Position numbers and translations under genes: made by a program
Part shown: one piece after another, positions 10,789 through 59,053 of the stretch
Position numbering within the stretch: the first letter of the stretch is position 1
Layout: each line of letters begins with the position of its first letter
The notes under the pieces: model-generated
Seen by the model: only the letters and a program-made list of their open reading frames with translations
Told to the model about the DNA's origin: nothing
Databases searched by the model: none
DNA from: Phycisphaerae bacterium
GTDB taxonomy: Bacteria > Planctomycetota > Phycisphaerae > UBA1845
Assembly: GCA_030429365.1 (NCBI GenBank)
Contig: JAUIEW010000002.1
Coordinates: forward strand, 1-63,170
DNA: 63,170 nucleotides
Reading direction: 5' to 3'

Positions 10789-11105
10789 TGGCAAATGGAC
10801 GTACGGCTCGCCAGATCAAAATGGCACGCAATGAAGTGTTGGTTGCGCTGAACATGCTATATCCAGCCGCCCTGCAAGCCGAGCAGTTGATGCGCAGCCT
10901 GTTGAGCGTGTTTCCGACGATGGAATGGGATCCGTTTCGCCGCGATCTGGCGTACCTTTGCGAGAAAGGTTACGTGCAGCGCGTGGTTTCAGAAAACGAA
11001 TCGGACCCGAAGTTCACCCCGTGGCGACAGCGCTGGTTTCGCTTGACGAGCGCGGGCATGGAAGTTGCGGACCATGTGATTGGCGACCCGGCGCTGGATG
11101 AATGA
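10788..11105 (+). CDS. hypothetical winged-helix-like protein (cassette gene 3)
   Basis: TAATG overlap with gene 2. 105 aa. The segment LAYLCEKGYVQRV...WFRLTSAGMEV looks like a wHTH recognition helix plus wing. Confidence 0.6.
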   Translation: MANGRTARQIKMARNEVLVALNMLYPAALQAEQLMRSLLSVFPTMEWDPFRRDLAYLCEKGYVQRVVSENESDPKFTPWRQRWFRLTSAGMEVADHVIGDPALDE

Positions 11106-11665
11106 TGGTGCGCACGACAACGAAAAAAACACGTCGCGAAGCGCCCAAGAAGCCAACTGCGGCGCGAAAGAAATCGTCGACCAAGAAGTCCACACGCAAA
11201 AAAAACGAGGCTGGCAATTCGGAAATCCGAATCGATTCAGCCGCCCCTTCTTTGCCCATCGAGGAATATCGCCAACGCCTCGGCGCGGTCGGGCGGCTGA
11301 TGCGGGCGGCGATGGCGGATTTGGAAACAGACCAGCCGGGCGGCGACCGCATCGGACAAGGAGCCTACCTTCAGGTGATGGGCCGGGCGTTCGAAGTGCT
11401 CGACGGTCTGTCGCAAACGATCGACGTCGATGACTTGGTGAAAATCTCCAAGGTCATCGCCGAACAGCGCCGAGCCGAGCTGAACCACCGCAAATTGCAA
11501 CTCGAAATCGCCGACGAAAAAGAAGCCCCGCGCTCAAGAGCCCCACAAGCAAACAAGAACGGACGTGCCGCGACGGGTGACTATACGCTACCGGATTCGT
11601 TCGGAGAGGTCGTACGACAGATTTATGGTACAACCTTGGCAACGGACATAGAAAACCCAAAGTAA
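11102..11665 (+). CDS. hypothetical protein with Lys/Arg-rich N-terminal tail (cassette gene 4)
   Basis: ATGA overlap with gene 3. 187 aa. The N-terminus is TTKKTRREAPKKPTAARKKSSTKKSTRKK and the rest is helical. Confidence 0.6.
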   Translation: MMVRTTTKKTRREAPKKPTAARKKSSTKKSTRKKNEAGNSEIRIDSAAPSLPIEEYRQRLGAVGRLMRAAMADLETDQPGGDRIGQGAYLQVMGRAFEVLDGLSQTIDVDDLVKISKVIAEQRRAELNHRKLQLEIADEKEAPRSRAPQANKNGRAATGDYTLPDSFGEVVRQIYGTTLATDIENPK

Positions 11666-11688
11666 AATCAAGCCCAAACAAGAATCGG

Positions 11689-11729
11689 GTGCCCCGCCCT
11701 TGAGCGCAGCGGAAGGGTGGGGGACTGAA
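11689..11729 (+). repeat. family-A stem-loop repeat (long-loop variant)
   Basis: gtgccccgcccttgagcgcagcggaagggtgggggactgaa, 23 nt after the cassette gene 4 stop, in sense orientation. Confidence 0.75.
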
Positions 11730-11771
11730 TTCGACAATGCGCCCCAATCATCGCAAGCTGAGTACGTATAT

Positions 11772-12851
11772 ATGCGCAATCGACTTCTCAACATCACGCC
11801 ACGGCAGGCGGTCTTGATGTCGGCGGCGCTCATCGTTCTTGGAATTTCTGCATTGGGCATTGCTATTGTTGGGTTTAGATATGACCCGCTGCACGCTGTT
11901 TGTTGGTTTCTTGGTATAGAACTATTTGGGCTTGCGTATCTATGGGCGTCCATCGACTTTGAAGGCCAACAAGCCGTCTCCTTGGGCGGCCTTTGGTTTC
12001 AACTGTCAATCGCGCTGATCCTGATTGCAGTGGTTATCGCACAGTCGGGGACATCGGGCCAACCATTCCCGGATTGGGGCGTTGCCCTTTTCTTCGTTTC
12101 CGGCGGCATTTACTTGGCATCAATTTGTCGAAGAGCCATCAAGAACTTTCAGCGCTGGCGAAACGGGGAGTTTGACCCGATACTGGAACCTCACAACGAA
12201 ATGCAAAACTCAATTGAATCCGAGAAAATGCCCACAAACGACGAATACGAAAAAATCGCAACCGCCTGGTACGACCGCAAGTCGGCCATGATGGAGTCGA
12301 CGCTAGGCGCGGAGCACGGCATTGTGATGCACGCTTTGATTCCATACGAAATGGGCGGCGGGCTCGATCTCTACTTCTACCCCAACGGTATCGAAGGCAC
12401 CGGGTTCGCCACCAAGGAACTCTCCGAAATCCCAACCGAAGGCTCGAACAACGATGTCTTCGACCTTTACGAAATGGTCATGTTCACCAGGCTTCCACTC
12501 GAACTTGAGTTGTTTCGAGACGAAAGCACCGCGTTCGGCCAGACCTACAAAACGTTCAACGCCATCCTGAACGCCATCGCCCTTTACAGTCGCGACGCCA
12601 AACTCAACCCCAACGAAACCTGCGAATTCCCCGAAGATATGGACATCATCGGCGGCAAGTGCCTGATCTTCGACGCCCATGCCACCCACTCCGACCCCGA
12701 AGTCGAAACCTTCGGACTGCTCGCGCTTATCGAAATATTTCGATCCGAAATGGACTACGCACGAGCCAACGGCGGCGCCAAACTCCTCGACCTGCTCAAG
12801 ACGGCCGGCCACTACCCATACTCGGATATGAATCGGGAACCGGTCGTATAA
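11772..12851 (+). CDS. membrane-anchored protein with SUFU-like (suppressor-of-fused-like) C-terminal domain
   Basis: The track start at 11700 lies inside the family-A repeat, so I prefer ATG 11772. N-terminal TM helices are followed by ...MESTLGAEHGIVMHALIPYEMGGGLDLYFYPN..GTGFATKELSE, which resembles bacterial SUFU-like domains. The domain call is tentative. Confidence 0.55.
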   Translation: MRNRLLNITPRQAVLMSAALIVLGISALGIAIVGFRYDPLHAVCWFLGIELFGLAYLWASIDFEGQQAVSLGGLWFQLSIALILIAVVIAQSGTSGQPFPDWGVALFFVSGGIYLASICRRAIKNFQRWRNGEFDPILEPHNEMQNSIESEKMPTNDEYEKIATAWYDRKSAMMESTLGAEHGIVMHALIPYEMGGGLDLYFYPNGIEGTGFATKELSEIPTEGSNNDVFDLYEMVMFTRLPLELELFRDESTAFGQTYKTFNAILNAIALYSRDAKLNPNETCEFPEDMDIIGGKCLIFDAHATHSDPEVETFGLLALIEIFRSEMDYARANGGAKLLDLLKTAGHYPYSDMNREPVV

Positions 12852-17132: not shown

Positions 17133-17633
17133 TCAATCGCCAAAGAGCGATTGCTGATCGGGTGATGCGGTTGCGGCATGATCCTCGACGCGCTGGATCT
17201 CCTCGGCGAATTCTGAAACGTGGTTGAACTCCTTAAACACGCTCATGAAACGCACATATGCGACATGGTTCACATCGCGAAGCTTGCGGGCCACACACTC
17301 GCCCACCTCGCGGCTGGTAACCTCCCGGTCGTGATCCCGGAACAGTTCCCCTTCAATATCATCGGTCATCGCTTCAATGTCCGTATCCACGATGGGCAGC
17401 TTGTAACAAGCGTGCTGGATACCGGCCATGATCTTGTCGCGACGAAACCGCACCCGCGAACCGTCTTTCTTGACCACCGCAATGCGCAGTTCTTCTTCGG
17501 CGCGCTCCTTCGTCGTGAACCTGCGATTGCACGCTTGGCACACGCGACGCCGACGAATCGCTCCGCCGGACTCGGTCAGCCGGGAATCAATGACTTTGTC
17601 TTTTCCAATTTCGTTGCAGGCGGGACACCGCAT
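17133..17633 (-). CDS. nrdR: transcriptional repressor NrdR
   Basis: MRCPACNEIGKDKVIDSR...RRRRVCQACNRRFTTKER zinc ribbon followed by an ATP-cone. Confidence 0.92.
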   Translation of the reverse strand: MRCPACNEIGKDKVIDSRLTESGGAIRRRRVCQACNRRFTTKERAEEELRIAVVKKDGSRVRFRRDKIMAGIQHACYKLPIVDTDIEAMTDDIEGELFRDHDREVTSREVGECVARKLRDVNHVAYVRFMSVFKEFNHVSEFAEEIQRVEDHAATASPDQQSLFGD

Positions 17634-37103: not shown

Positions 37104-39881
37104 TTAAATGCTAGACGCCGCGCTCTTCTTGGCCGTCGTCTTCTTGGTCGTTTTCTTCTTGGCGGTTTTTTTCTTAACCGTCTTCTTCGCGGCTTTCTTG
37201 GTCGTTTTCTTCTTAGCCGTCTTCTTTTTCGCGACCTTCTTGGCCCGCGGGTCCTTGCCCTGGTCGCGCATCTTCTGCTCGCGCGCCGCGATCAGCTCCA
37301 GACCCTGTTCAAGTGTGATCGACGCCGGATCGCGCCCTTTGGGAATGGTGGCGTTGACTTCGCCGTCGGTCACATACGGCCCGAAACGGCCATTCTTCAC
37401 CTTCACATCCGCATCACTGTCAGGATGCTTGCCAAGCTCCGCGATGATCGACGAACCCCGCGCCCGACGCCCTTTCGGTTGCTTGAAGATTTCCACCGCC
37501 TCAGACAACGTCACGCTCGCGAGTTTCTCATGGTTTTCGAGGCTGCGACTGTCCGTCCCCATGCGAAGATACGGGCCGAATTTCCCATCCTGCGCGGTGA
37601 TCACATCACCCGTTTCAGGATGCGCTCCCAACTCGCGCGGATACGACAGCAGCATCGTCGCTTCTTCCAGCGTCACCGTGTCGATCGACATGGTCGGCCA
37701 AAGACTGGCCATCTTCGGTTTGGAACCCTTTTTGATATTGCCCTTCGGCGTCAACTCCGGGTCGCCAAGCTGCACATAAGGCCCGAAGCGCCCCGTCTTG
37801 ATGTAGATCGGCTGATTGGTCTCCGGATGATGGCCAAGAACCCGATCTCCCATCGCCGCTTGCTCAAGCAACTCAAGCGCTCGCTCAATGGTCAACTCGT
37901 CCGGAGCGATGTCGTCCGGCACCGTCGCCCGCAAGTCTTCGTCACCAACCTGCACATAAGGACCGTATCGACCAACCCGCGCAAAGACCTCTGCGCCTTC
38001 AGCATTGACACCGAGACGGATCGAACAAATCGAACGAGCGTCGATTTCTTCCCAGCCCGACCCGATGAGTTGCTTCAGCCCGATGTCGGCAACGTGGTCG
38101 CCATTCTTCTTGGACTTTGGATCACCAAAGTAGAAATCGTGGAGCCAGGGTCCGGCATCGCGCTCGCCATTGGCAATCGCATCCAAACCGTCTTCCATCT
38201 TCGCGGTGAACTCGTAGTCCACCAACTCTGGAAGGTGCGTCTCCAAAAGGTTCACCACCGCAAACGCAGTGAACGTCGGAACCAACGCACTGCCCTTCTT
38301 CCAGACATAACCACGATCCTGAATCGTCTGGATGATGCTCGCGTAAGTTGAAGGCCGACCTATCCCGCGCTCTTCCAACTCTTTCACCAACGAAGCTTCC
38401 GTGAACCGTGCGGGCGGCTGGGTGGTGTGACCGGAAGGCGTGACTTCCTCAACGCCCAGCGCTTCGCCAACCTTGAGCGGCGGAAGGATCGACTCCTGGT
38501 CTTCCAGCTTGGCGTCCGGATCGTCCGACCCTTCGACATACGCCCGCAAGAACCCAGGGAACTGAATCACCTTGCCCGATGTCGTGAACACGGCTTGCCC
38601 ATCGTCGCCTGCGTTCGCAACGATCTTCACGCTCGTCCGCACGCCCTTCGCATCTTTCATCTGCGACGCGATGGTGCGCATCCAGATCAACTCGTATAGC
38701 TTCAAAGCATCGCTATCGAGTTCACCTTCAAGTTCCTTCGGCGTGCGAAACGCGTCGCCCGTGGGTCGAATCGCTTCGTGTGCTTCCTGCGCGTTCTTGC
38801 TCTTTCGTTTGTATGTTCGCGGACCATCTGGAAGATAATCAGCGCCGTACATCTCGCCGATCTGCTGGCGCGATGCGTTCAGCGCTTGATCGGAAAGATG
38901 CGTCGAGTCGGTTCGCATGTAACTGATGTAACCGTTCTCATAGAGACTCTGCGCCAAACGCATCGTCCGCTGCGCCCCAAACCGAAGCTTGCGAGCCGCC
39001 TCCTGCTGAAGCGATGAAGTAATGAACGGTGGATACGGCTTGTTCGTAAATGGCTTTTCTTTGACGTCGCTGACTTTGAATTCGCTCGTGCGAAGACGGT
39101 CAGCCAGCGCGGTCGCCGATGTCTCATCCAGCAACCGAACGCTGTCAGCTTTCTTGAGCTTGCCGGTGGTTTCTTCGAAATCCTTACCGATCGCCAAACG
39201 CTGACCATCGAGTTCGATCATGCGGGCGGCGAGTGTTGATTCCTGCGCGCTAAGTTTCGCGTCGATGTCCCAATACCCGGCGCTGACGAACGCCATCCGC
39301 GCCCGTTCGCGATTGACAATCAACCGTGTCGAAACCGACTGCACCCGGCCCGCCGACAAACGCGGCTTGACCTTGCGCCAAAGCACTGGCGACACTTCGT
39401 ATCCAAACAAACGGTCAAGGATGCGCCGCGACTCCTGGGCACTGACCAATTGGCGATCGATGTCGCGAGTGTGATCAACAGCTTGTACGATCGCGGTCTT
39501 GGTGATCTCATCAAAAACCATGCGCTTGACGGGCACCTTTGGGTTCAGCACTTCCTGCAAATGCCAGGCAATCGCCTCCCCCTCGCGGTCTTCGTCCGTT
39601 GCGAGGTACAGTTCGTCGACGGCTTTTAGCATCTTGCGAAGCTTGGTGACCTGGGCCTTCTTGCTCTTGGGAACGATGTAGAGCGGTTCGAATTCGCTCT
39701 CGACGTTGACGCCCAATCGCGACCACGATTCCTTCTTATATGCTTCCGGGATTTCAGCCGCGTTGGAAGGAAGATCGCGGATGTGTCCGATGGAGGACTC
39801 CACTTCGAACCCGCTTCCAAGATACTTGGAGATGGTCTTGGCCTTTGCGGGCGATTCAACGATAACGAGTGCTTTGGTCAT
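37104..39881 (-). CDS. topA: DNA topoisomerase I with Lys-rich C-terminal tail
   Basis: Toprim N-terminus VIVESPAKAKTISKYLG, the active-site region ISYMRTDS, C-terminal repeated GRFGPYV motifs, and a terminal tail of about 50 aa (AKKVAKKKTAKKKTTKKAAKKTVKKKTAKKKTTKK). Confidence 0.95.
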   Translation of the reverse strand: MTKALVIVESPAKAKTISKYLGSGFEVESSIGHIRDLPSNAAEIPEAYKKESWSRLGVNVESEFEPLYIVPKSKKAQVTKLRKMLKAVDELYLATDEDREGEAIAWHLQEVLNPKVPVKRMVFDEITKTAIVQAVDHTRDIDRQLVSAQESRRILDRLFGYEVSPVLWRKVKPRLSAGRVQSVSTRLIVNRERARMAFVSAGYWDIDAKLSAQESTLAARMIELDGQRLAIGKDFEETTGKLKKADSVRLLDETSATALADRLRTSEFKVSDVKEKPFTNKPYPPFITSSLQQEAARKLRFGAQRTMRLAQSLYENGYISYMRTDSTHLSDQALNASRQQIGEMYGADYLPDGPRTYKRKSKNAQEAHEAIRPTGDAFRTPKELEGELDSDALKLYELIWMRTIASQMKDAKGVRTSVKIVANAGDDGQAVFTTSGKVIQFPGFLRAYVEGSDDPDAKLEDQESILPPLKVGEALGVEEVTPSGHTTQPPARFTEASLVKELEERGIGRPSTYASIIQTIQDRGYVWKKGSALVPTFTAFAVVNLLETHLPELVDYEFTAKMEDGLDAIANGERDAGPWLHDFYFGDPKSKKNGDHVADIGLKQLIGSGWEEIDARSICSIRLGVNAEGAEVFARVGRYGPYVQVGDEDLRATVPDDIAPDELTIERALELLEQAAMGDRVLGHHPETNQPIYIKTGRFGPYVQLGDPELTPKGNIKKGSKPKMASLWPTMSIDTVTLEEATMLLSYPRELGAHPETGDVITAQDGKFGPYLRMGTDSRSLENHEKLASVTLSEAVEIFKQPKGRRARGSSIIAELGKHPDSDADVKVKNGRFGPYVTDGEVNATIPKGRDPASITLEQGLELIAAREQKMRDQGKDPRAKKVAKKKTAKKKTTKKAAKKTVKKKTAKKKTTKKTTAKKSAASSI

Positions 39882-48882: not shown

Positions 48883-51540
48883 TCAGACGTCGAGATTCTG
48901 CGCGTTGATCGCGTTCTCTTCGATGAAGCGGCGACGCTCTTCGACGCTGTCACCCATCAGCACGTGGAACATGCGATCGGCTTCCTGTGCATCGAGTGCC
49001 AACTGCTCGGCATCGTCGGGATCATCGGTGATGGTCACGCGGCGCAGCGTTCGCTTGGAACGATCCATGGTGGTTTCCCACAGTTCCTCCGCGTTCATTT
49101 CGCCGAGACCTTTGAAGCGCTTGAGCGTAATGCCGCTGCCGCCCAGACGGCGAACGCCAGCCAACACGTCGGCGAGATTGTCGAGTTCGTTGGGAGCATG
49201 TTCCCCCTGCCTCAACAAGTATCTCGCGGGCGTCAGTTCACCGGTGACCAATTGCTCGCGGGCCGCGAAGTAATCTTCGATATCGACCTGCATATCCTTC
49301 AAGCGCTTAATCAGCGAATCGAGCACACGACACTCCGACAACTCGTGGCGAACGATGTAGGTGTCTGAAAGTGCATCGCCTTCTTCGTCGCCATTGTTCG
49401 AACGGGCAACAGCCATATGCCGCGCTTCGATCAGATCAACGCGTTCAACTTTTTGCGCCAGATCGTTGCGATAGGCGGTCAAGGCGGCTTCATCGTGGAA
49501 GAAGCGCCGCTCCGCAACCGCATCATCTTCGCTATGAATTTCGGCGAAAATCGTGGGAAGTTGGCCGGCTTCGCCGCGATGATTCTGAACGATCGATTTG
49601 AAATCGATGCCGCGCCGCTCGAGGAACTGACGGTGCTGGTCGATTCCATCCAAAATTTCAAGCAGTTTGCGCAGTTCGTCGCCCTGAATCTCGCGATCCG
49701 CAGCATTCCCGCCCGAGATATCGCGAATCAGCAGCGTTGTTTCATCCAGGCCAAGATCGGTGAGCATGCCATTCATCACCGACTCGTTGAGAACGTACTG
49801 CTCCTTCTTACCGCGCTTCAGCAGATAGAGCGGCGGCTGAGCGATGTACACGCGCCCTTCTTCAATCAAAGGCCGCATGTGCCGGAACAGGAACGTCAAC
49901 AGCAGCGTGCGAATGTGGCTGCCGTCAACGTCGGCGTCCGTCATGATGATCAGCTTGTCGTAACGCCGTTTGGCCACGTCGAATTCATCTTTGCCGATAC
50001 CGCAGCCCATCGCCTTGATGATGTGCGCGATCTCGTCGTGCGACAGCATCTTGTCGATGCGCGCCTTTTCGACGTTTAAGATTTTACCCTTGAGCGGCAG
50101 GATCGCCTGCGTTCGCGAATCGCGCCCCTGCTTGGCGCTGCCGCCAGCTGAATCACCTTCGACGAGATAAATCTCGGTGCCTTCCGCACTCTTTGAGCTG
50201 CAATCCCAGAGCTTTCCGGGCAATCCGCCCGTGCTCATCACACTCTTGCGGGCAAGGCCGCGGGCCTTCCGCGCGGCTTCTCGTGCCTGCGCTGCATTCA
50301 CCCCGCGCTGCACGATTTTCTTCGCGTCGGCTGGGTTCTCTTCGAGGAAGTTGCGAAGCTGCTCGTTAACCGTCTGCTGCACAAACGTCTCGACTTCCGG
50401 ATTGAGCAAACGCACCTTGGTCTGCGATTCGAACTGCGGATTTGGCACTTTCACACTGATGACAGCCGTCAAGCCTTCGCGCCAATCGTCGCCCGACGGA
50501 ATCACTGAACCCTTCACCAGGTTGTTCTTTTTCGCGTAGTTGTTGGCCACGCGCGTCAGCGCACTCTTGAACGCCGACATATGCATGCCGCCGTCGATGT
50601 TCTTGATGTTGTTGGCAAACGCGAGAATGTTCTCGGTGTAGCTGTCGGAATATTGCAACGCAATATCACACGCCAGGCCCTGCTTGGGGTCTTCGGCTTT
50701 CAGCTTGATCACGTCGCGGTGGATCGGTTCAGCCCCACCAGCCAGGTGCGAAACAAACTGTTTGATGCCGTCGTCAAAACAGAACGACATCTCCTTGCCC
50801 GACGTTTCATCCAAGACCTCGATGCTGAGGCCTTCGTTCAGATACGCCAACTCGCGAAGCCGCACACCCAGCGTATCGAGCTTGAACACAATCTCAGGGA
50901 AAATCTGCGGATCTGGCGCAAACTCGATGCGCGTCCCGCTCTTGGACGTCTCGCCAACCACCGAAAGTTCGCGGGTGACGTCGCCGCGCTCGAAACGCAT
51001 CGAATGGACCTTCCCGTCACGTTCAACGGTGACTTCCATCCACTCGGCCAGCGCGTTCACCACACTGACGCCGACGCCATGCAATCCACCCGAAACCTTG
51101 TACGCACTTTGGTCGAACTTACCGCCCGAGTGCAGCACGGTCATCACCACCTCAAGCGCCGGCTTGCCGTTGAGCGCCGGGTTGGCGTTGTTTTTCATCG
51201 GACCGACGGGAATGCCGCGGCCATTGTCAACGACGGTGCAACTGCCATCGGCGTTGAGCTTCACAAGGATCTTCGTGCAGTACCCAGCCATCGCTTCGTC
51301 GATCGCATTGTCGACGAGTTCATAAATCAAATGGTGAAGACCGTTCGTCCCGGTACCGCCAATGTACATCGCGGGGCGTTTGCGGACGGCTGCCAGCCCC
51401 TCCAGCACCGTGATCTGACTTTCGTCATAGTCAGCCGCCTTCCCCTTCGCCGGCGGGTTTGCCGCATCAGTCGGCGCAGGGTCGCTGGATGGAACCGAAG
51501 TCGTCTCGATCGGGCCTGGATGTTTCGCTGCTTCACTCAT
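48883..51540 (-). CDS. gyrB: DNA gyrase subunit B
   Basis: GHKL N-terminus LEGLAAVRKRPAMYIGG...LVYELVDNAIDE, Toprim EIYLVEGDSAGGSAKQGRD and C-terminal KGLGEMN. A ~170-aa proteobacterial-type insert is present. I prefer the start at ATG 51540. The track's TTG at 51627 would give a TTGA overlap with the DUF721 gene. Confidence 0.95.
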   Translation of the reverse strand: MSEAAKHPGPIETTSVPSSDPAPTDAANPPAKGKAADYDESQITVLEGLAAVRKRPAMYIGGTGTNGLHHLIYELVDNAIDEAMAGYCTKILVKLNADGSCTVVDNGRGIPVGPMKNNANPALNGKPALEVVMTVLHSGGKFDQSAYKVSGGLHGVGVSVVNALAEWMEVTVERDGKVHSMRFERGDVTRELSVVGETSKSGTRIEFAPDPQIFPEIVFKLDTLGVRLRELAYLNEGLSIEVLDETSGKEMSFCFDDGIKQFVSHLAGGAEPIHRDVIKLKAEDPKQGLACDIALQYSDSYTENILAFANNIKNIDGGMHMSAFKSALTRVANNYAKKNNLVKGSVIPSGDDWREGLTAVISVKVPNPQFESQTKVRLLNPEVETFVQQTVNEQLRNFLEENPADAKKIVQRGVNAAQAREAARKARGLARKSVMSTGGLPGKLWDCSSKSAEGTEIYLVEGDSAGGSAKQGRDSRTQAILPLKGKILNVEKARIDKMLSHDEIAHIIKAMGCGIGKDEFDVAKRRYDKLIIMTDADVDGSHIRTLLLTFLFRHMRPLIEEGRVYIAQPPLYLLKRGKKEQYVLNESVMNGMLTDLGLDETTLLIRDISGGNAADREIQGDELRKLLEILDGIDQHRQFLERRGIDFKSIVQNHRGEAGQLPTIFAEIHSEDDAVAERRFFHDEAALTAYRNDLAQKVERVDLIEARHMAVARSNNGDEEGDALSDTYIVRHELSECRVLDSLIKRLKDMQVDIEDYFAAREQLVTGELTPARYLLRQGEHAPNELDNLADVLAGVRRLGGSGITLKRFKGLGEMNAEELWETTMDRSKRTLRRVTITDDPDDAEQLALDAQEADRMFHVLMGDSVEERRRFIEENAINAQNLDV

Positions 51541-51623
51541 CGTTTGTTCAGTATCGCTACCGCTGGAAATCGTTGCATTGCCGTACGTGACACCTGCCGT
51601 ACAGGATATCTGGCGTACGAATC

Positions 51624-52025
51624 TCAATCAGGAATGGTCGTCTGGAACGTCGCCCCATCCGTCCCCAACTCGAACCGAATTCGCCGGATCAACGTTCCCC
51701 GACACACCCGTTCGAGATGCTCGCGAAGCTGCAAATGCCACTTCGTTCGAATGACGCTATGATACCGCGCATCGGCTGGATTCACCAATATAACCACGCT
51801 GCCAGCCGACATTCCCCCATAACGGCAGTACCGCCGAAATTCGTCGTCCACGACGGCTGATATCGCCTCAAAAACCGCCACTTCATGTGACGCCGTTCGG
51901 CCCACGTCAGCCGACATCTTCGCCGCCAACGAACCGATCGATTTTGTGCGCGTTCGCGTCTGCCGATTGGCGTGACACCAGTGCAACTGACTGGGGGAAA
52001 TGTCGTCTCTGGGTTGTTCAGCCAA
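51624..52025 (-). CDS. DUF721 (DciA-like) protein
   Basis: 133 aa lying between dnaN and gyrB, which is the usual DUF721 position. The segment GSVVILVNPADARYHSVIRTKWHLQLREHLERV resembles DUF721 core. Confidence 0.65.
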   Translation of the reverse strand: MAEQPRDDISPSQLHWCHANRQTRTRTKSIGSLAAKMSADVGRTASHEVAVFEAISAVVDDEFRRYCRYGGMSAGSVVILVNPADARYHSVIRTKWHLQLREHLERVCRGTLIRRIRFELGTDGATFQTTIPD

Positions 52026-52057: not shown

Positions 52058-53155
52058 TTAGGACAGGTTCACGGGCATCACGACGTACAAATTGCCCTCG
52101 TCACCACGCAGCACGCCCGGACGATTCGATTCACTCATCTCAAATCGAACTTCCTCAGCCGAAATCGCCCGCAGCGCTTCGACCAGGAACGTCGGGTTGA
52201 ATCCGATCTCCATATCCGCGCCGGCATATTCGATCGGAATCTCAATCGTCGATTCCCCCTGGGTCGGGGCTCGACTGGTCAGCTTCAAATGGTCGGCAAA
52301 GAATGCCATCCGCACGCCCTTCGACTCTTCGTTGGTCAAAAGCGCCGAACGCTTCACCGCGCTGAGCAGGTCGGCTGTCTTCATCGTCGCGACCCGGTCC
52401 CCCTTCGCCGGAATCACGTCCTGGTACTTCGGGAACTGCCCTTCGACCAGACTCGTGCTGATTGTCGCCTTCGCAGTCTTGAACACCAACTGGTTGCCCG
52501 TTGCTTTGATCGCCACGGTGGAGTCAGCCGGTCCGAGCACGCGCTGGAAGATCCCCATCGTCTTGACCGGAACGATGTTCTCCAGATTGCCGCCGTCTGC
52601 CGACTCCAACTTGCCTTTGGCCTGCGACAGCCGCCGACCATCGGTCGCCACCATCACGAGTTCCTTGCCCTTGCGATCCCAGAGCACACCGTTGATGGCG
52701 TAGCGCGTGTTCTCGCGGGCAGCCGCCAGGACCGTCCATTCCGACATGCGGCGAAGCAAACCGGCATCGACGGTCAGGTCGGGCTTACCCGATAGCTCGG
52801 CAGTGGGCGGGAACTCTGCTGCCGGCTTGGTGTAGATCTGATAGTGGGCACCCGTTCCACGAACGTGGCAGATGCTGTCGTCCGAGCTGAACTCAAGAAC
52901 CTCGTCCGTCGATTCGCGCACGATCTGCGTCAGCTTGTCGGCGGCGACCACGACGGGCCCGGTTTCATCGACTTCGACCTGCGCGACGGTATAGCGGATA
53001 CCGATCTCCAGGTTGGTCGCGATGAGCACGCAGTGATCCTTGTGTGCTTCGATCATGGTGCATTCGAGAATCTCTTTCGGAGTGCGTGATGCTGCCACCG
53101 ATCCGACTGCGACCAATGCTTCGGCAAGTTCCTGCCGGTTCATTCGGACTTTCAT
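52058..53155 (-). CDS. dnaN: DNA polymerase III beta sliding clamp
   Basis: 365 aa with a three-domain clamp pattern. It runs from MKVRMNRQELAEAL to the C-terminal YVVMPVNLS. Confidence 0.92.
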   Translation of the reverse strand: MKVRMNRQELAEALVAVGSVAASRTPKEILECTMIEAHKDHCVLIATNLEIGIRYTVAQVEVDETGPVVVAADKLTQIVRESTDEVLEFSSDDSICHVRGTGAHYQIYTKPAAEFPPTAELSGKPDLTVDAGLLRRMSEWTVLAAARENTRYAINGVLWDRKGKELVMVATDGRRLSQAKGKLESADGGNLENIVPVKTMGIFQRVLGPADSTVAIKATGNQLVFKTAKATISTSLVEGQFPKYQDVIPAKGDRVATMKTADLLSAVKRSALLTNEESKGVRMAFFADHLKLTSRAPTQGESTIEIPIEYAGADMEIGFNPTFLVEALRAISAEEVRFEMSESNRPGVLRGDEGNLYVVMPVNLS

Positions 53156-53520
53156 GAACGTTGACCTTTTGTTGTAAACTTCTTTAGGGGTTTAGTGTGT
53201 TAGTCTAATCTATAAAAAACTTCTTATTACTATGCCCTGTTACAAACGCGGCATTTGTTCGTGCGATATGGGTAAGCTTTTGCTTGACCATATCTTAAGC
53301 GAAATTCGCGGGCCAACCAACACGTGGATAACCTGTCAGTCCCAGCGTTGGCAGCTTCGGCTTCACTCACTGGCGACTCGAAACTGTCCACACACCTGTG
53401 GAAACCTGTGAGTCACTGGCCATTCATTCACTGCGTAACTGACAGCTGGCATTGGCATTGGTGATATCTCAAACACCGTTGTGCACAAGGGCGAATCGCC
53501 GCGCATCTACCGCATCCATA
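53156..53520. promoter_or_regulatory. candidate oriC (AT-rich unwinding element plus DnaA-box-like 9-mers)
   Basis: An AT-rich tract spans about 53166-53250. Box-like sites are cgtggataa (53323-53331, 8/9 to TGTGGATAA), ctgtccaca (53384-53392, 7/9 to TTATCCACA) and tgtggaaac (53398-53406, 7/9). Confidence 0.55.
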
Positions 53521-54852
53521 TTAGCTTATGCCGTTTTGCTGAGCCCGCAGTGCCGCCCGCAGGTTTTCGACCGAACGGCGCACCTTGGCGTCGGTGTCGA
53601 TCATTTTCTTGATCGTTCGATTCGCGTGCAGCACCGTCGAGTGGTCGCGGCCGCCAAAATATCCGCCCACTTCCTCAAGGCTGTGCTCCGTCAGTTCCCT
53701 GGCCAGATACATACAAACCTGTCGTGGATGGCTGATCGACTTCGGACGCTTCTTGCTCTGCAAGTCTTTGACCCGCACCCCGAAGTGACGCGTGACCACG
53801 TCGATGATCTGCTGAATCGAAATCGCGGAAGCCTCAGCTTCATCCGCCAGCGCCCGCCGCGCAAGGTCCATATCGATCGTACCGTCAGACGCCTGGCTCA
53901 TCGCATCCAGTCGCAGCAGCGCGCCTTCAAGATCGCGAATGTTCGTGTGGATGTTGGTCGCGACATATTCAATGACGTCTTCCGGCACCTCGATGCAGCG
54001 GAGGCGCGACTTCTTGCGGAGGATGGCCATCCTCGTTTCCATGCATGGCGCATCGATCGAAGCCACCAGCCCTGACTTGAAGCGACTCACCAACCGATTC
54101 TCAAGCGTCGGAATCTCCGATGGCGAGCAGTCAGCCGACAACACGATCTGCTTCTGCGACTGATGCAGCGTATTGAACGTGTGGAAGAACTCTTCCTGGC
54201 TGCGCTCGCGGGCGCCGAGGAACTGAATGTCATCGATGACCAGGAGATCAACGTGGCGGTAGTGAAAACGAAACTGATTCATCGCGCCGCGCTCGACTGC
54301 TTCGATGAAGTGATTCGCAAATGTCTCACATGAAATATAGAGCGTGGTCGGACACGTCCCGAGTCGCCGTGTTTCGTGGCAAATCGCTTGAAGCAAGTGC
54401 GTCTTACCCAGACCCACATCGCCATGGATGAAAAGTGGGTTGTAAACCTGCCCCGGGTTCTCAGCCGCGGCGACTGCCGCAGCATGCGCCATCCGGTTGC
54501 CGGCTCCCACGACGAAATTGTCGAACACATAATCGTCGTTAAGTTGGAGCTGGTTGTTTTCAGAAATCGAAAGCGGGTAGCCTTCGTCGTCGGCGATCTC
54601 GTTGGGGGCGTCGGTCTCGAAGGTTGTCGTGACCAGTTGCTCGAGAACACCCTGGGCGGCTTCGATAAACGCGGGCCGACACTCGTCATCGAGATACCGA
54701 ACCTGCTTGAGATTCCCCGCGCGAATGCGCAGAACGCCCCCCGACAGATCGATTGGTTTGAGTGTGCTGAACCAGCCGCGAATCAGGGCTGGATGCAGCG
54801 CCCGGATCCGGTCCAGAATGCTTTTCCACTCAGGTGCAGCAATTGAAGACAT
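53521..54852 (-). CDS. dnaA: chromosomal replication initiator protein DnaA
   Basis: Walker A GDVGLGKTHLL, LLVIDDIQFL, and the C-terminal domain IV SHPRQVCMYLARELTEHSLEEVGGYFGGRDHSTVLHA. Confidence 0.96.
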   Translation of the reverse strand: MSSIAAPEWKSILDRIRALHPALIRGWFSTLKPIDLSGGVLRIRAGNLKQVRYLDDECRPAFIEAAQGVLEQLVTTTFETDAPNEIADDEGYPLSISENNQLQLNDDYVFDNFVVGAGNRMAHAAAVAAAENPGQVYNPLFIHGDVGLGKTHLLQAICHETRRLGTCPTTLYISCETFANHFIEAVERGAMNQFRFHYRHVDLLVIDDIQFLGARERSQEEFFHTFNTLHQSQKQIVLSADCSPSEIPTLENRLVSRFKSGLVASIDAPCMETRMAILRKKSRLRCIEVPEDVIEYVATNIHTNIRDLEGALLRLDAMSQASDGTIDMDLARRALADEAEASAISIQQIIDVVTRHFGVRVKDLQSKKRPKSISHPRQVCMYLARELTEHSLEEVGGYFGGRDHSTVLHANRTIKKMIDTDAKVRRSVENLRAALRAQQNGIS

Positions 54853-55220
54853 GCAAATATCCAGAAAACGAATCGAGCGGGTTTCCGCGAATTCGTTATG
54901 ATGCTGATGAATCGTGTGCGATTAAACGTAAAGCTTTATAATAATTGCAGTTATGAATGATTGACCGCGCCGGCGGCCAAGCGGTTATTCTACACGAACC
55001 GTGTGGAAAAACCAGTGTGAAATGTCGCCAATCAACACGTTTTGCGGCGTGGTTCCGAAGCTTTTGTCCACAAAACGCTTACGACGCCATGGGGTGTTTT
55101 CGTGCATCAGTGACGCCAACTTTTGTGCGCATCGACATGCTGTTATCTTTGCATCTTCGACGTTAGGATAAGCCCCACAACGAAACACCTCAAATCGATT
55201 CAAACCGAATCGCTCGAGGC
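54853..55220. promoter_or_regulatory. dnaA / top6B divergent control region with DnaA-box-like sites
   Basis: An AT-rich stretch spans 54921-54960. tgtggaaaa (55002-55010) and ttgtccaca (55064-55072) are each 8/9 matches to the DnaA box. Confidence 0.5.
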
Positions 55221-57221
55221 ATGGAGGCAAGCAGGATCATGGAAGATCAGCGGGCGGGCGGTGCGTGTCTGGACTCAGATATCACAGCCCAGACAGACAT
55301 CCAACTCCAACCGCAAACTTCGATTTCCAGCAGTGTCGAAACGTTAACCCGTATCAAGGCAGGCAAGGTGAGTAAAAAGAAGAGTCGCACATCCCGCGCG
55401 TCCGCGGAGACGATGGCCAAGCAGCAGCGCGAGATTTCCATCTCCGAATTCTTCGCACGCAACCGCCATCTACTCGGTTTCGACAACAAACGAAAAGCGC
55501 TGCTGACCAGCGTCAAGGAAGCCGTCGACAACGCCCTCGATGCGTGCGAAGAAGGCGGCGTCTTTCCGGAAATCTACCTGGAAATCAAACAACTGGCTGA
55601 AGACCGCTTCCGCATGATCTGCCGCGACAACGGGCCCGGCATCGTCAAAGCCCAGATTCCCAACATCTTCGGCAAGCTTCTTTACGGCTCCAAGTTCCAT
55701 CGCCTCAAAATGTCGCGTGGCCAACAGGGCATCGGCATCAGTGCGGCTGGCATGTATGGACTGATCACCACCGGAAAACCGGTCAGCATCATCAGCCGCA
55801 CCGGTAAGGGCAAACCGGCGCATCACTACAAACTCGCGATCGATACCAAGAAAAACAAACCCGACATCATCGCCGACAAAACTGTGGATGTACCGTGGGA
55901 TCGGGGGACGGAAATCGAAATCGAGATGGTGGCCAGCTACAACAAAGGCCGCCAAAGCGTGGCTGAGTACATCGAACTGACGGCGATCGCCAACCCGCAT
56001 ACGACGATCGTCTTTAAAGGTCCCGACAAAAAAGTCGTCGAGTATCTGCGCAATGTCGACGAACTTCCGGAACAAACCGAAGAGATCAAGCCGCATCCGC
56101 ATGGCGTTGAACTCGGCATCCTGATGAAGATGGTCAAGGAGACGAGCGCGAAGCAACTGGGGGCATTTCTGAGCGGAGAGTTCTCGCGGGTCAGCCCGAA
56201 GATCGCCAAGGAGGTTTGCGCCAAATCCGGCTTGACCCAGCGCACATGGCTCCAAAGCGTCGGCCCGAGCGACATCGAAAAGATCTACAACGTCCTCCAG
56301 GAAACCAAACTCCGCGCCCCCAGTACCAACTGCCTCGCACCCATCGGCGCGGAAGCGATTCTCAATGGCTTACTCAAAGGGATCAAAGCCGAGTTCTACA
56401 CGGCATCGACGCGCCCGCCAGCCGTTTATCGCGGTAACCCGTTTCAGATCGAAGTTGGGATGGCGTTCGGCGGACAACTCGGTTCGCTCGATAACAATGG
56501 CAACGGTGATGAAAAAAGCAAACAACCCCCCACCGCCCGCGTCATTCGCTTCGCCAACCGCGTACCGCTGCTCTATCAACAAAGCGGATGCTGCACGTTC
56601 AAAAGCGTCGTCGATACCAAGTGGAACAACTACGGCTTGTCGCAGTCGCGATCGTCGTTGCCGCAAGCGCCGTTCGTCGTGCTCATCCACATGGCCAGCG
56701 TCTGGGTTCCGTTCACGTCGGAATCGAAAGAGGCCATCGCCGACTACGATGAGATTCGCAAGGAGATCAAACTCGGCTTATCCGAGTGTGGGCGGCGCCT
56801 TGGCACGTATATTCGTCGCAAGAAGAAGCGCTCGCACTTTGCCCAGCGCCGTGACGTGTTTCACCGCTACATCCATGAGATTGTCGAGTCCTGCCGGGCG
56901 ATGACGGTCTGCAACAAAGACGACCTGCGCAACGCACTCAGCGACTTGGCAGCCCGCGCGACCGAAGCGGCTGACATGGAATTCGACGATCACGGCAAGA
57001 TCATCGCGAAGCGCAAAGGCAGCGATTCGGAGATGGACAACACCATCGTGCTGGGCGAATCCGAACAAGCACCGCCCGGTCAGATGGAATTGTTCGCCGG
57101 CGACGATGAATCCGTCACCGAACGCAAAGTCCGCGCCAAGAAATCAAAGAAAAAAAGCAAAAAGTCCAAAGGCGCCAAGAACGCCAAGCCAACCGGCAAG
57201 AAGAAAAAGAAACGCAAGTAA
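55221..57221 (+). CDS. top6B: DNA topoisomerase VI subunit B (GHKL ATPase) with Lys-rich C-terminal tail
   Basis: ISISEFFARNRHLLGFDN, then the Bergerat motifs EAVDNALDA, DNGPGI and GQQGIGIS. The tail is RKVRAKKSKKKSKKSKGAKNAKPTGKKKKKRK. An alternative start is ATG 55413 (MAKQQREISISEFF). Confidence 0.88.
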   Translation: MEASRIMEDQRAGGACLDSDITAQTDIQLQPQTSISSSVETLTRIKAGKVSKKKSRTSRASAETMAKQQREISISEFFARNRHLLGFDNKRKALLTSVKEAVDNALDACEEGGVFPEIYLEIKQLAEDRFRMICRDNGPGIVKAQIPNIFGKLLYGSKFHRLKMSRGQQGIGISAAGMYGLITTGKPVSIISRTGKGKPAHHYKLAIDTKKNKPDIIADKTVDVPWDRGTEIEIEMVASYNKGRQSVAEYIELTAIANPHTTIVFKGPDKKVVEYLRNVDELPEQTEEIKPHPHGVELGILMKMVKETSAKQLGAFLSGEFSRVSPKIAKEVCAKSGLTQRTWLQSVGPSDIEKIYNVLQETKLRAPSTNCLAPIGAEAILNGLLKGIKAEFYTASTRPPAVYRGNPFQIEVGMAFGGQLGSLDNNGNGDEKSKQPPTARVIRFANRVPLLYQQSGCCTFKSVVDTKWNNYGLSQSRSSLPQAPFVVLIHMASVWVPFTSESKEAIADYDEIRKEIKLGLSECGRRLGTYIRRKKKRSHFAQRRDVFHRYIHEIVESCRAMTVCNKDDLRNALSDLAARATEAADMEFDDHGKIIAKRKGSDSEMDNTIVLGESEQAPPGQMELFAGDDESVTERKVRAKKSKKKSKKSKGAKNAKPTGKKKKKRK

Positions 57222-57275
57222 CCCGACCGCAGAAACCCCCGGGATCAACCCGATTCAAACAGTCGATCGCAATCA

Positions 57276-58463
57276 ATGGCCAAGAAGAAAACAAAGAAAA
57301 GCACCGCAAAGAAGAAGTCGGCAAGCAAGTCCCCCAAGACCGTGACCAAGAAGCGATCCAAACGGGGATCCAACGGCGTCAAGACCACCGCCAAGCTCGA
57401 AGGCCTGGCCGAATCCGTCGTGGAAAATGCGTTTGGGCGGCGCGAACCGGCGATCGATATTCCCATTCGCGCGCTGAGCAACGTCAGCTTCAACCCGAAA
57501 ACGCGCTACATCGAAATGGGCGACCGCTGCCAGCAACGTGCCCTGTTTAACTACGGCCAAGCCAAACGCTTCATGCAGACACTGCTCGTCGCCAGCAAGT
57601 GCAAAGAACTCGTCGATGCCGACAAGACAGCCAGCATTCGACAGATCTATTATCTCGCCAAGCACACGATCAAAGGCACGAAGGAGAAAACCTTCGACAG
57701 CCAGGATGAGTCGGATCCGGTGATCGAAGACTTGGAAGTCGCCCTCGAAGCCCTGCGCGAAGAACTGCACGTTTTCGCCGGCAGCAAGGGCGCGCTCATC
57801 GGTGAACTGACCTTCGTCGATAGCGGTGACACCATCGATGCCACCAAACTCGGCAGCGGTGGTTACGCCATCCCGAGTATCGTCGAACCGAACGTCATCC
57901 AGTTCAAAAAGTGCAAAGCCAAGTACGTTCTCCATGTCGAAAAAGACACGGTTTGGCGTCGTTTCGTGGAAGATCGCTTCTGGGAGAAACACCGCTGCAT
58001 TCTCACGCACGGTGGAGGCCAGCCGTCACGCGGCGTGCGCCGGATGCTCTATCGCCTGCACGATGAACTCAAACTTCCCGTCGTCTGCCTGCTCGATAAC
58101 GACCCGTGGGGATACTACATCTACTCCGTCATCAAGCAGGGGTCGATCAATCTTGCGTTTGAATCCTCCAGGATGGCCGTCCCGAACGCCCGCTTCATCG
58201 GCGTCTCCAGCTTCGACTACGATCGTTTCGACCTGACCGACGACGTCAAAATCGAGCTCGACGGCAACGACATCAAGCGGGCCAAGCAGATCCTGAATTA
58301 CCCGTGGTTTGCTGGTAAGAAAGCGTGGGAAAAAGAAATCAAGCGAATGGTCAAGAACGGTTTCAAGATGGAAGTCGAAGCGCTCTGCAGCAAGAACCTG
58401 ACCTTCGTCACCGAGGAATACACACCGCAACGGCTAAAACAACCCAAGTCTTGGTTGGACTAG
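57276..58463 (+). CDS. top6A: DNA topoisomerase VI subunit A (Spo11 homolog) with Lys-rich N-terminal tail
   Basis: Catalytic Tyr motif SIRQIYYLAKH, Toprim Glu in VLHVEKDTVW, and DxD in LLDNDPWGYYIYSV. The N-terminus is MAKKKTKKSTAKKKSASKSPKTVTKKRSKRG. Confidence 0.9.
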   Translation: MAKKKTKKSTAKKKSASKSPKTVTKKRSKRGSNGVKTTAKLEGLAESVVENAFGRREPAIDIPIRALSNVSFNPKTRYIEMGDRCQQRALFNYGQAKRFMQTLLVASKCKELVDADKTASIRQIYYLAKHTIKGTKEKTFDSQDESDPVIEDLEVALEALREELHVFAGSKGALIGELTFVDSGDTIDATKLGSGGYAIPSIVEPNVIQFKKCKAKYVLHVEKDTVWRRFVEDRFWEKHRCILTHGGGQPSRGVRRMLYRLHDELKLPVVCLLDNDPWGYYIYSVIKQGSINLAFESSRMAVPNARFIGVSSFDYDRFDLTDDVKIELDGNDIKRAKQILNYPWFAGKKAWEKEIKRMVKNGFKMEVEALCSKNLTFVTEEYTPQRLKQPKSWLD

Positions 58464-58464
58464 T

Positions 58465-58500
58465 GTAGGGTGGGCCGTGCCCACCAAGTCGTTGGATAAT
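58465..58500. repeat. family-C repeat (short-hairpin variant)
   Basis: gtagggtgggccgtgcccaccaagtcgttggataat starts 2 nt after the top6A stop. It aligns with 8089-8124 (gtagggtgggccgtgcataccaggtcgttaagtaat). Confidence 0.75.
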
Positions 58501-58513
58501 AAAAGACTCAACG

Positions 58514-59053
58514 ATGACCGCGCCATCCATCGAAACCGCGAACACCCGGCGCATGCGCGCAGAGCGCATCGCCGAACCGCACTTCGCACACCTCGTCGCG
58601 CTCTATCAAGATCCCAAGGTGATGGCCACCCTCGGCGGCGTTCAGTCCGTCGCCAAAATCCGCGAAGGTTTCGACAAGAACGTTGCCCATTGGGATGAAC
58701 ACGGCTTCGGTCTTTGGTGCTTTTTCGACCAGGAAACCGGCCAATTCGCAGGTCGAGGCGGACTTCGCAAACTCACCCAGGACGGCGAACCGGAAATCGA
58801 AATCGCCTACGCCGTTCCCGCTTCGCACTGGGGTCAGGGCCGAGCCACCGAAATCGCGGCGCTATCGGCTGACATCGCGTTCAATCGGTTGCAGATGCAA
58901 AACGTCGTCGCGTTCACCCTGCACGAAAACAAAGCGTCGCGCCGGGTCATGGAAAAACTGCACATGACCTACGAGCGCGACATCATTCATGCCGAACTGC
59001 CGCACGTGCTCTACCGCATCACCCGCGAGCAATATCAGGCGAGCGTGGAGTAA
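58514..59053 (+). CDS. GNAT family N-acetyltransferase (RimJ/RimL-like)
   Basis: 179 aa. HWGQGRATEIAA is the acetyl-CoA binding motif, followed by NKASRRVMEKLHM. Confidence 0.78.
   Translation: MTAPSIETANTRRMRAERIAEPHFAHLVALYQDPKVMATLGGVQSVAKIREGFDKNVAHWDEHGFGLWCFFDQETGQFAGRGGLRKLTQDGEPEIEIAYAVPASHWGQGRATEIAALSADIAFNRLQMQNVVAFTLHENKASRRVMEKLHMTYERDIIHAELPHVLYRITREQYQASVE

Follow-up and report, generated by a model that had tools for sequence, protein, structure and literature searches.

A dnaA-linked topoisomerase VI operon of Phycisphaerae with putative clamp-binding motifs in the tails of Top6B

Positions 55221-58463 of a 63,170-nt stretch of DNA from a Phycisphaerae bacterium (Planctomycetota; contig JAUIEW010000002.1 of assembly GCA_030429365.1), hereafter called the window, are occupied by an intact archaeal-type DNA topoisomerase VI (Topo VI) operon. 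The enzyme itself is not novel, as both its type and the group of its host are known. What Topo VI does in bacteria is acknowledged in the literature to be a question, and the comparison of the locus with its relatives gives two testable handles on it. These are the deeply conserved linkage of top6B to dnaA and dnaN, and terminal motifs that fit the highest-affinity consensus for binding to the beta sliding clamp (DnaN). Together, the head-to-head linkage of dnaA and top6B and the tail motifs suggest that this bacterial Topo VI may have been integrated into the replisome. Origin adjacency and co-regulation by DnaA, which had been put forward in the original prediction for this DNA, are weakly supported at best.

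Identity and catalytic residues of the enzyme

The operon consists of two co-directional genes with the following features (aa, amino acids):

55221..57221, + strand: top6B, Topo VI subunit B, 666 aa as called (NCBIfam, Pfam, phmmer against the PDB, AlphaFold2 (AF2) model searched with Foldseek)
57222..57275, + strand: intergenic gap between top6B and top6A, 54 nt
57276..58463, + strand: top6A, Topo VI subunit A and Spo11 homologue, 395 aa (NCBIfam, Pfam, PDB)
55518..55742, + strand: Bergerat/GHKL motifs EAVDNALDA (E100, N104), DNGPGI (D136, G140) and GQQGIGIS (G-loop) of Top6B, by alignment
56718..56741, + strand: transducer segment SESKEAIA of Top6B with the switch lysine K503
57636..57665, + strand: 5Y-CAP motif IRQIYYLAKH of Top6A (R122, catalytic Y126), by alignment to solved Top6A
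57936..58112, + strand: Toprim residues of Top6A, E222 (VEKD, 57936-57947) and D274/D276 (DNDPWG, 58095-58112), by alignment

Both subunits score far above the curated cut-offs of the Top6B and Top6A profile hidden Markov models. Top6B matches NCBIfam NF003218 with 659 bits (cut-off 274; protein residues 61-598, profile positions 4-527 of 539) and TIGR01052 with 509 bits (cut-off 381), and Top6A matches NF003333 with 547 bits (cut-off 465; residues 35-394). The label of the latter model at NCBI, 'topoisomerase IV subunit A', is a naming quirk, the Pfam domains of the protein (TP6A_N, Topo_VI_alpha and TOP6A-Spo11_Toprim) being of the Topo VI type; Top6B contains Topo-VIb_trans (183 bits) and HATPase_c. 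The best phmmer matches in the PDB are 2q2e_B for Top6B (E 1.9e-142) and 2zbk_A for Top6A (E 2.9e-73). Among solved relatives, Top6B is much closer to the M. mazei protein, scoring 479 bits with it and 267 bits with that of S. shibatae, whereas the order is reversed for Top6A (250 bits with S. shibatae, 160 bits with M. mazei). This discordance may be due to different rates or to distinct histories of the subunits.

The original prediction had recognised Topo VI by the N-terminal segment ISISEFFARNRHLLGFD followed by EAVDNALDA, DNGPGI and GQQGIGIS in the first open reading frame (ORF), and by IRQIYYLAKH, VEKD and DNDPWG in the second. All of these were found, those of Top6B in the order given, and alignment to solved structures upheld the assignment of the Tyr, Toprim and Bergerat residues. 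The Bergerat residues align one by one with 2q2e_B and 2zbk_B, and E100, N104, D136, G140 and G167/G170/G172 are invariant among 46 diverse Top6B proteins (alignment A4), as is K503. The transducer segment corresponds in the alignment to FTSESKDAIA in M. mazei and to YKSAGKESIA in S. shibatae. In Top6A, the segments aligned with IRQIYYLAKH are TLREAYYVSKN in M. jannaschii (1d3y) and TIRDLYYRGKH in S. shibatae (2zbk). Two tyrosines are adjacent in this motif, and Y126, four residues after the arginine, is the one which we take to be catalytic, following the R99/Y103 numbering of M. jannaschii. All 12 clade members compared (alignment A1) share R122, Y125 and Y126, and likewise E222, D274 and D276, which match the IETS and DGDPYG/DADPYG motifs of solved Top6A proteins. 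The AF2 model of Top6B has a mean predicted local distance difference test (pLDDT) score of 83.9, with most of the core above 90 and a helix at 510-561. Its best Foldseek matches in the PDB are M. mazei Topo VI-B (E 4e-62), on which it superposes over 512-524 columns with the H2TH domain included, and S. shibatae (TM score up to 0.89). Top6A and Top6B are predicted to assemble into a complete, catalytically competent type IIB topoisomerase (Top6A2-Top6B2), and no sign of a pseudogene was seen.

The scan of 53100-58600 for terminators revealed none on the + strand between top6B and top6A, which, given their common direction and the 54-nt gap, is consistent with co-expression. Translation of top6B probably begins at the second ATG, at 55239 (MEDQ...), which has a GGAGG sequence 11 nt upstream and corresponds to the (I/V)M(D/E)D start of its relatives; the spacer to dnaA would then measure 386 nt instead of 368 nt. 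The GC content matches that of the window, no mobile-element genes were detected around the locus and the neighbours are ordinary chromosomal genes. Close Top6A homologues number in the thousands, and the named ones come from metagenome-assembled genomes (MAGs) of Phycisphaerae or Planctomycetota that are already labelled as topo VI subunit A. Judged by its composition and setting, Topo VI is part of the chromosomal housekeeping set of its host. Many Top6B homologues of 1000-1570 aa (P0126, P0127, P0132 and P0158 among them) hold one or two inteins, which sit in the GHKL domain together with LAGLIDADG homing endonucleases (Pfam Intein_splicing and LAGLIDADG_3); the Top6B of the window has none.

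Relation to known topoisomerases VI

Bacterial Topo VI was already noted in 2009 (PMC2647321) and derives from archaea by horizontal transfer (PMC2647321, PMC11302465). Allen and Maxwell (2024) reported it in 17 bacterial families including Phycisphaerae (Sedimentisphaerales) and Pirellulales (PMC11302465). All Topo VI bacteria in that survey have gyrase, members of the Planctomycetota-Verrucomicrobiota-Chlamydiota (PVC) group lack topo IV, and compensation for topo IV was proposed; unpublished data cited there state that M. mazei Topo VI complements E. coli parE(ts) (PMC11302465). Thus, the presence of Topo VI in a gyrase-containing bacterium and the possible replacement of topo IV are established knowledge. 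The PVC enzymes of that survey (Sedimentisphaerales, Pirellula staleyi and Thermogutta terrifontis) belong to the same family, phylum and class as that of the window. Unlike the present analysis, the survey mentions neither genomic context nor tails or terminal motifs; indeed, its text contains zero occurrences of dnaA, operon, synteny and lysine (PMC11302465).

With the archaeal enzymes (M. mazei 2Q2E/9O0G, S. shibatae 2ZBK and M. jannaschii 1D3Y) the operon shares the two-gene B-A layout, the GHKL, H2TH and transducer domains of subunit B, the 5Y-CAP and Toprim domains of subunit A and all catalytic and ATP-binding residues. In contrast to the archaeal systems, the host is a bacterium with gyrase and TopA, the gene lies beside dnaA and dnaN, and the enzyme has disordered basic tails on B (N and C terminus) and A (N terminus) as well as short conserved motifs. 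Moreover, Top6B lacks the Ig-like C-terminal domain of M. mazei Topo VI-B, and the alignment ends at residue 474 of the 621-residue chain.

Linkage of top6B to dnaA across the clade

The genes for replication initiation, the clamp and gyrase subunit B precede the operon in the divergent direction:

48883..51627, - strand: gyrB (NF011501, 983 bits, cut-off 796; parE models score lower)
52058..53155, - strand: dnaN, beta sliding clamp (TIGR00663, 246 bits, cut-off 138)
53521..54852, - strand: dnaA (TIGR00362, 469 bits, cut-off 344; Pfam Bac_DnaA and Bac_DnaA_C)
54853..55220, no strand: divergent spacer between dnaA and top6B, 368 nt, GC 47%

The 54-nt gap, the divergence from dnaA over 368 nt and the presence of gyrB and topA in the window had all been described correctly beforehand. 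To place this layout in context, the surroundings of Top6A were compared in 80 loci, each representing one species of Phycisphaerae or of other Planctomycetota. The arrangement gyrB-dnaN-dnaA <> top6B-top6A was present in 28 of the 80 loci, down to about 50% DnaA identity. A second sample, a Top6B-centred scan of metagenome contigs, yielded 14 core-clade contigs, six of which carry dnaA-dnaN-gyrB divergent from top6B. Three of these six (L083, L086 and L087) have kept dnaA <> top6B with no top6A within 7-10 kb downstream, and thus dnaA <> top6B is the conserved unit. In a neighbour-joining Top6B tree, the linkage maps to the crown clade that contains the window. More distant bacterial Top6B proteins (59% identity or less) are encoded in plain B-A operons without dnaA; the more distant Planctomycetota proteins of the sample (60% identity or less) share this layout and mostly lack the N-terminal motif described below. 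In a large crown clade, top6B was thus shown to be fixed head-to-head with dnaA inside the gyrB-dnaN-dnaA block.

The dnaA-adjacent arrangement is the commonest one in the clade and is thus not peculiar to this genome, which removes part of the novelty attributed to it in the original prediction. The other part stands, since no paper describing the linkage was found: the open-access literature yielded none tying topo VI to dnaA or dnaN, nor to Phycisphaerae by name. As an arrangement recurring across species, dnaA-linked top6B looks undescribed.

Further variants were seen around these genes. Locus L045 (9-4764) has dnaN-gyrB-top6A in the same direction, with no top6B in the stretch seen, and represents a second, different linkage of a Topo VI gene to the replication cluster. 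A conserved third gene for an accessory subunit between top6B and top6A was considered and rejected, because the inserts are unrelated between loci; they include a methyltransferase-like gene and a zinc-ribbon membrane protein. The DNA-methyltransferase-like inserts of two loci (L006:8979-9968 and L008:2482-3408; motif DPPFNIGYDYDVYDD) are 81% identical to each other. A further locus, L002 (JANQQE010000021.1), encodes a Top6A that is 94% identical and has the same gyrB-dnaN-dnaA <> top6BA synteny, yet it was deposited as 'Alphaproteobacteria bacterium' and is probably a mis-binned or mislabelled MAG.

Putative clamp-binding motifs in the tails of Top6B

Clamp-binding motifs (CBMs) have been defined as Q-phi-x-[LM]-[FL] or Q-phi-x-[LM]-x-[FL]; QLxLF and QLxLxF are the forms of highest affinity and typically lie at disordered termini with acidic flanks (PMC11139829). 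Motifs resembling these occur at both ends of Top6B in the clade, and the window carries one of them:

57081..57095, + strand: QMELF, aa 621-625 of Top6B, in the disordered C-terminal tail and followed by acidic AGDDES, resembling a clamp-binding motif; the surrounding tail segment (aa ~615-632) is PPGQMELFAGDDES

In the clade, the N-terminal motif consists of Gln (38/38 sequences), Leu or Met (31/38), any residue, Leu or Phe (36/38), any residue and Phe or Tyr (38/38), within flanks that are unconserved according to position-frequency tables. It mostly lies 7-16 residues past the nearest upstream in-frame Met and reads, for instance, QLTLPF, QLALMF or QATLDF. The strict form is present in 25 of 45 loci (0.017 expected from shuffling). 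A search of the first 45 residues of the 1708 ORFs encoded at the same loci retrieved the motif from 35 of them, and 33 of the 35 are Top6B. At the other end of the protein, the dipeptide LF is invariant in 46 of 50 clade C-tails, with acidic residues after it, and QxxLF is present in 16 of the 50 (0.23 expected). The closest relatives have QLELF, QMQLF, QLKLF or QLGLF at this position, Gln at -3 being a feature of the subclade of the window. Taken verbatim, the published CBM definition matched 32 of 51 core-clade Top6B tails, and 39 of the 51 if Met was accepted at position 2; 0.70 were expected. None of the 47 representatives of archaeal-type Top6B contains a CBM-type motif. Other extended bacterial Top6B proteins show QLSLL or a terminal QLDLV.

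The presumed binding partner is encoded two genes away. The DnaN of the window aligns end to end with solved clamps, and nine of the 12 residues of E. coli subsite I are identical and one more is conservatively replaced, so that the pocket is largely canonical. Known CBM proteins comprise Hda (N-terminal QLSLPL), Pol IV (QLVLGL), Pol II, Pol V (QLNLF) and Pol III alpha (QADMF plus a C-terminal motif). Like Hda, Top6B has a QLxLxF-type peptide near the N-terminus, to which a QxxLF-type one in a disordered C-tail with acidic flanks is added. Unlike the known clamp partners, Top6B is a topoisomerase whose binding to the clamp is predicted, and the copy of the window has only the C-terminal QMELF. 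Reviews of the beta clamp name no topoisomerase among its partners (PMC11139829, PMC9690074). An archaeal precedent is the co-purification of PCNA, RFC and NucS with the Topo VI of P. abyssi (PMC9665070, PMC4929162). We infer that the tail motifs of Top6B are probably beta-clamp-binding motifs. The occurrence of CBM-matching motifs in Top6B tails, nearly specific to this protein, looks undescribed.

Two related observations were made outside the clade and outside Top6B. A separate bacterial Top6B lineage (51-55% identity; metagenome contigs L113, L115, L120, L123, L128, L141, L146, L151 and L152) has a KQMTLGFE-type hexapeptide in a Lys-rich C-tail, about 20 residues from the end. Moreover, the ribonucleotide reductase repressor NrdR of the window (17133..17633, - strand; Pfam Zn_ribbon_NrdR and ATP-cone) ends in ...ATASPDQQSLFGD, a QxxLF pentapeptide at the extreme C-terminus past a low-complexity linker. 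NrdR might carry a clamp-type motif in this lineage.

Lysine-rich tails

The motifs described above are embedded in, or neighboured by, basic terminal extensions:

55221..55403, + strand: N-terminal extension of Top6B, aa 1-61, disordered, ending in basic KAGKVSKKKSRTSRAS (55356-55403)
57123..57218, + strand: Lys-rich C-terminal tail of Top6B, aa 635-666, 62% Lys and Arg
57276..57371, + strand: Lys-rich N-terminal tail of Top6A, aa 1-32, 47% Lys and Arg
37107..37247, - strand: Lys-rich C-terminal tail of TopA, 47 residues (RAKKVAKKKTAKKKTTKKAAKKTVKKKTAKKKTTKKTTAKK...)

The AF2 model indicates disorder in residues 1-52 and 614-666 of Top6B (pLDDT below 50 for 1-52 and 614-662), and the solved archaeal chains cover only the core, that is residues ~62-564 of Top6B and ~29-394 of Top6A. 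The N-tail of Top6A varies in length but is basic throughout the clade (alignment A1), and basic C-tails of Top6B are also clade-wide. Comparable tails are absent from all 47 representatives of archaeal-type Top6B. Thus, the earlier claim that both subunits have Lys-rich tails which the archaeal enzymes generally lack is borne out. The tails are not specific to Topo VI, as TopA has one too. A scan of all reading frames detected exactly three Lys-rich tails in the window, namely at the C-terminus of Top6B, the N-terminus of Top6A and the C-terminus of TopA. The tail of TopA implies that the trait belongs to the relaxing topoisomerases of the lineage and not to Topo VI alone. Its restriction to TopA, Top6B and Top6A within the window looks undescribed.

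Lys repeats on Streptomyces TopA steady the binding to DNA and raise processivity (PMC5714199). In the light of these experiments, the most economical reading is that the Lys-rich tails are DNA tethers, and by analogy they probably act in a non-specific manner. Like Topo VI and the TopA of the window, the actinobacterial TopA (Streptomyces, Mycobacterium) is a DNA-relaxing enzyme with a Lys-rich terminal tail. It differs in being a type IA enzyme from another phylum, and in Topo VI each of the two subunits carries a tail at the end facing the B-A gene junction.

Proposed role and alternative explanations

It is likely, in our assessment, that the locus encodes a complete housekeeping Topo VI with a topo IV-like role, which is linked to dnaA, equipped with tails that would serve as DNA tethers or clamp docks, and possibly controlled by DnaA. 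By homology with the archaeal enzymes, ATP-driven dimerisation of the GHKL domains of Top6B would capture one duplex, the 5Y-CAP/Toprim dimer of Top6A would cut a second duplex using Tyr126 and Mg2+, and the first duplex would be passed through the break, resulting in decatenation or relaxation. Most likely, as proposed in the literature, the enzyme would perform post-replicative decatenation and relaxation of positive supercoils in place of topo IV. E. coli topo IV (ParC/ParE), for which the same role in ATP-dependent decatenation and positive-supercoil relaxation is presumed, is a non-homologous type IIA enzyme, and its architecture, cleavage stagger and recruitment all differ from those of Topo VI. 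No parC, parE or gyrA gene is present within the 63-kb window. The Lys-rich tails would tether the enzyme to DNA non-specifically, and the Top6B motifs (N-terminal QLxLxF in most of the clade, C-terminal QMELF or QLELF in the subclade) would seat it on clamps at or behind the forks. In this organism, the shared spacer may also bring top6B under the control of DnaA through two conserved DnaA-box-like sites.

A bolder version of this explanation, to which we give a tentative place somewhat short of even chances, holds that an archaeal-derived Topo VI has been wired into the replisome via clamp motifs in its Lys-rich tails, and that this happened convergently in at least one other lineage. Equally tentatively, Topo VI could then be the first topoisomerase recruited directly by the bacterial clamp, clearing precatenanes behind the fork in organisms without topo IV. 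A stepwise gain of these features is suggested by the approximate Top6B tree, with the C-terminal LF motif preceding the N-terminal motif and the latter preceding the linkage to dnaA. If the motifs do bind DnaN, Topo VI would be recruited in a manner new for topoisomerases of bacteria. It would clearly exemplify how an enzyme acquired horizontally from archaea adapts to the bacterial replication machinery through short linear motifs, and the clamp interactome would be broader than current lists suggest. If they do not, what is left is one more bacterial Topo VI, well annotated, from a clade that is already known.

Several observations weigh against recruitment by the clamp and against a general coupling to dnaA. 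As for the linkage, 12 of the 80 loci have B-A without dnaA within at least 4.4 kb upstream, about 17 of the 80 have top6A alone, and about half of the informative loci are not dnaA-linked. The tree was obtained by neighbour-joining with midpoint rooting and is approximate. As for the motifs, the Top6B of the window has itself lost the N-terminal QLxLxF, of which a degenerate GGACLDSDIT is left, and its QMELF has Met instead of an aliphatic residue at position 2. Most C-terminal motifs of the clade are without Gln (P-x-[TE]-L-F-[ED]-D-D) and might therefore bind something other than the clamp. The shuffle statistics overstate independence because the species are phylogenetically related. Finally, the presumed absence of topo IV rests on a survey of other Phycisphaerae (PMC11302465).

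The alternative that fares best, although we regard it as rather unlikely, is that of a bacterial Topo VI with nothing unusual about it. Its place beside dnaA would be inherited gene order without regulatory or functional meaning, the tails would be neutral low-complexity sequence as is typical of Planctomycetota proteins, and the motifs would be unrelated to the clamp and kept, for example, for contact with Top6A or for folding on DNA. The unlinked half of the informative loci fits this view, as do the heterogeneous inserts between top6B and top6A, which indicate that the locus tolerates rearrangement, and the lack of conservation of the DnaA boxes beyond close relatives. Moreover, clamp binding is deduced from sequence, and no topoisomerase appears in the partner lists of the clamp. 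Against this view, dnaA <> top6B stays together even where top6A has moved away, and the motif columns are nearly invariant within otherwise unconserved tails. The motifs fit the highest-affinity clamp consensus, are nearly exclusive to Top6B among the 1708 ORFs, and recur at different termini in separate bacterial lineages while being absent from the archaeal-type proteins.

A second alternative, which is unlikely, places the operon directly beside the origin of replication (oriC). The operon would be co-regulated with dnaA by DnaA through the shared spacer, coupling the supply of a decatenase to initiation. The DnaA-box-like sites in the two spacers flanking dnaA are the following:

55002-55010, - strand: DnaA-box-like site TTTTCCACA in the dnaA-top6B spacer, 8/9 match to TTATCCACA
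55064-55072, + strand: DnaA-box-like site TTGTCCACA in the same spacer, 8/9 match to TTATCCACA
53323..53331, - strand: DnaA-box-like site TTATCCACG in the dnaN-dnaA spacer, at the same position in L001, L005, L009, L023 and L079

The two 8/9 matches in the dnaA-top6B spacer, 62 bp apart, are present where the original prediction had placed them. Both sit inside conserved islands shared by the window and its four closest relatives (L001-L004), and in L001 and L002 the second site is a perfect TTATCCACA. The position of the TTATCCACG site is kept over a wider range of relatives than those of the two spacer sites. Of the seven 8/9 matches in the window, three fall in a stretch of 1.75 kb around dnaA. 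With 47% GC, the spacer has a higher AT content than the window, and it lies in a classical dnaA-dnaN-gyrB neighbourhood. Window-wide, the seven 8/9 matches correspond to the 7.16 expected by chance. The density of DnaA boxes is about five times that of coding DNA in both spacers flanking dnaA, yet the mean is below one box per spacer, and boxes of the E. coli consensus were not found in the other 24 of 29 syntenic spacers. A multi-box DnaA cluster is absent from both dnaA-flanking spacers, k-mer enrichment revealed no clade-wide spacer motif, and the scan of 53100-58600 detected no sigma-70-like promoter in the spacer, although promoters of Planctomycetota may differ from that model. The GC skew of the + strand is negative from about 12 kb to the window end in genes of either orientation, thus on both sides of the spacer, and its cumulative minimum lies at the window end. 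No sign change was seen at the spacer, to the right of which the window extends for only 8 kb, and closeness to oriC is therefore unproven. Moreover, boxes upstream of dnaA are equally explained by autoregulation of dnaA alone.

By these signatures, the dnaA-top6B spacer itself does not look like oriC, although an origin may still lie nearby, as only 8 kb to the right of the spacer was covered. The description of the operon as origin-proximal is unproven, given the lack of a skew switch and of a multi-box cluster. Its possible co-regulation by DnaA survives in part, namely for the four closest relatives with boxes in conserved islands and not for the 24 other syntenic spacers. Control of top6B by DnaA through the predicted sites is plausible for the subclade of the window only.

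Still less probable is a third alternative, according to which the Top6B motifs bind a partner other than the clamp, such as SSB, domain I of DnaA, a nucleoid or condensin protein, or Top6A. The prevailing C-terminal form without Gln is in favour of this view, as is the promiscuity of short hydrophobic motifs. In E. coli, it is MukB and not the clamp that recruits topo IV. Yet the N-terminal motif is an exact QLxLxF and that at the C-terminus in the subclade fits QLxLF, which are the two highest-affinity forms. Moreover, disordered termini and acidic flanks are typical of CBMs, and dnaN lies two genes away in the crown clade.

It is very improbable that the locus encodes a Spo11-like DNA breaker, or a type IIB enzyme that was recently transferred or is borne on a mobile element (like Topo VIII or Mini-A). 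Although bacterial Topo VI is of archaeal origin by horizontal transfer and Topo VIII is found on integrated elements in some Planctomycetes (PMC7671362), the locus encodes two separate full-length subunits that match Topo VI A and B at the level of equivalogs, an intact ATPase, and H2TH and transducer domains with the switch lysine in Top6B. Furthermore, its composition is host-like, mobile-element genes are lacking nearby and the synteny is kept across dozens of species. Identity with Topo VIII or Mini-A was rejected because the subunits are unfused and full-length and have chromosomal housekeeping neighbours.

Other features of the window

37104..39881, - strand: topA (TIGR01051, 823 bits, cut-off 456)
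51624..52025, - strand: 133-aa ORF between dnaN and gyrB, no Pfam match at E<=1e-4
47387-47460: tRNA
11000..12500 (approximate): peak of the cumulative GC skew

The slot between dnaN and gyrB, which holds the 133-aa ORF, is often occupied by recF or a DUF721-type gene. The tRNA was the only hit of an Rfam scan of the window, and no RNA element was detected in the dnaA-top6B spacer. To the left of this peak the skew of the + strand is weakly positive, and to the right it is consistently negative, whichever way the genes are oriented. The peak would correspond to a terminus-type change of polarity or to a rearrangement boundary, only about 42 kb from dnaA.

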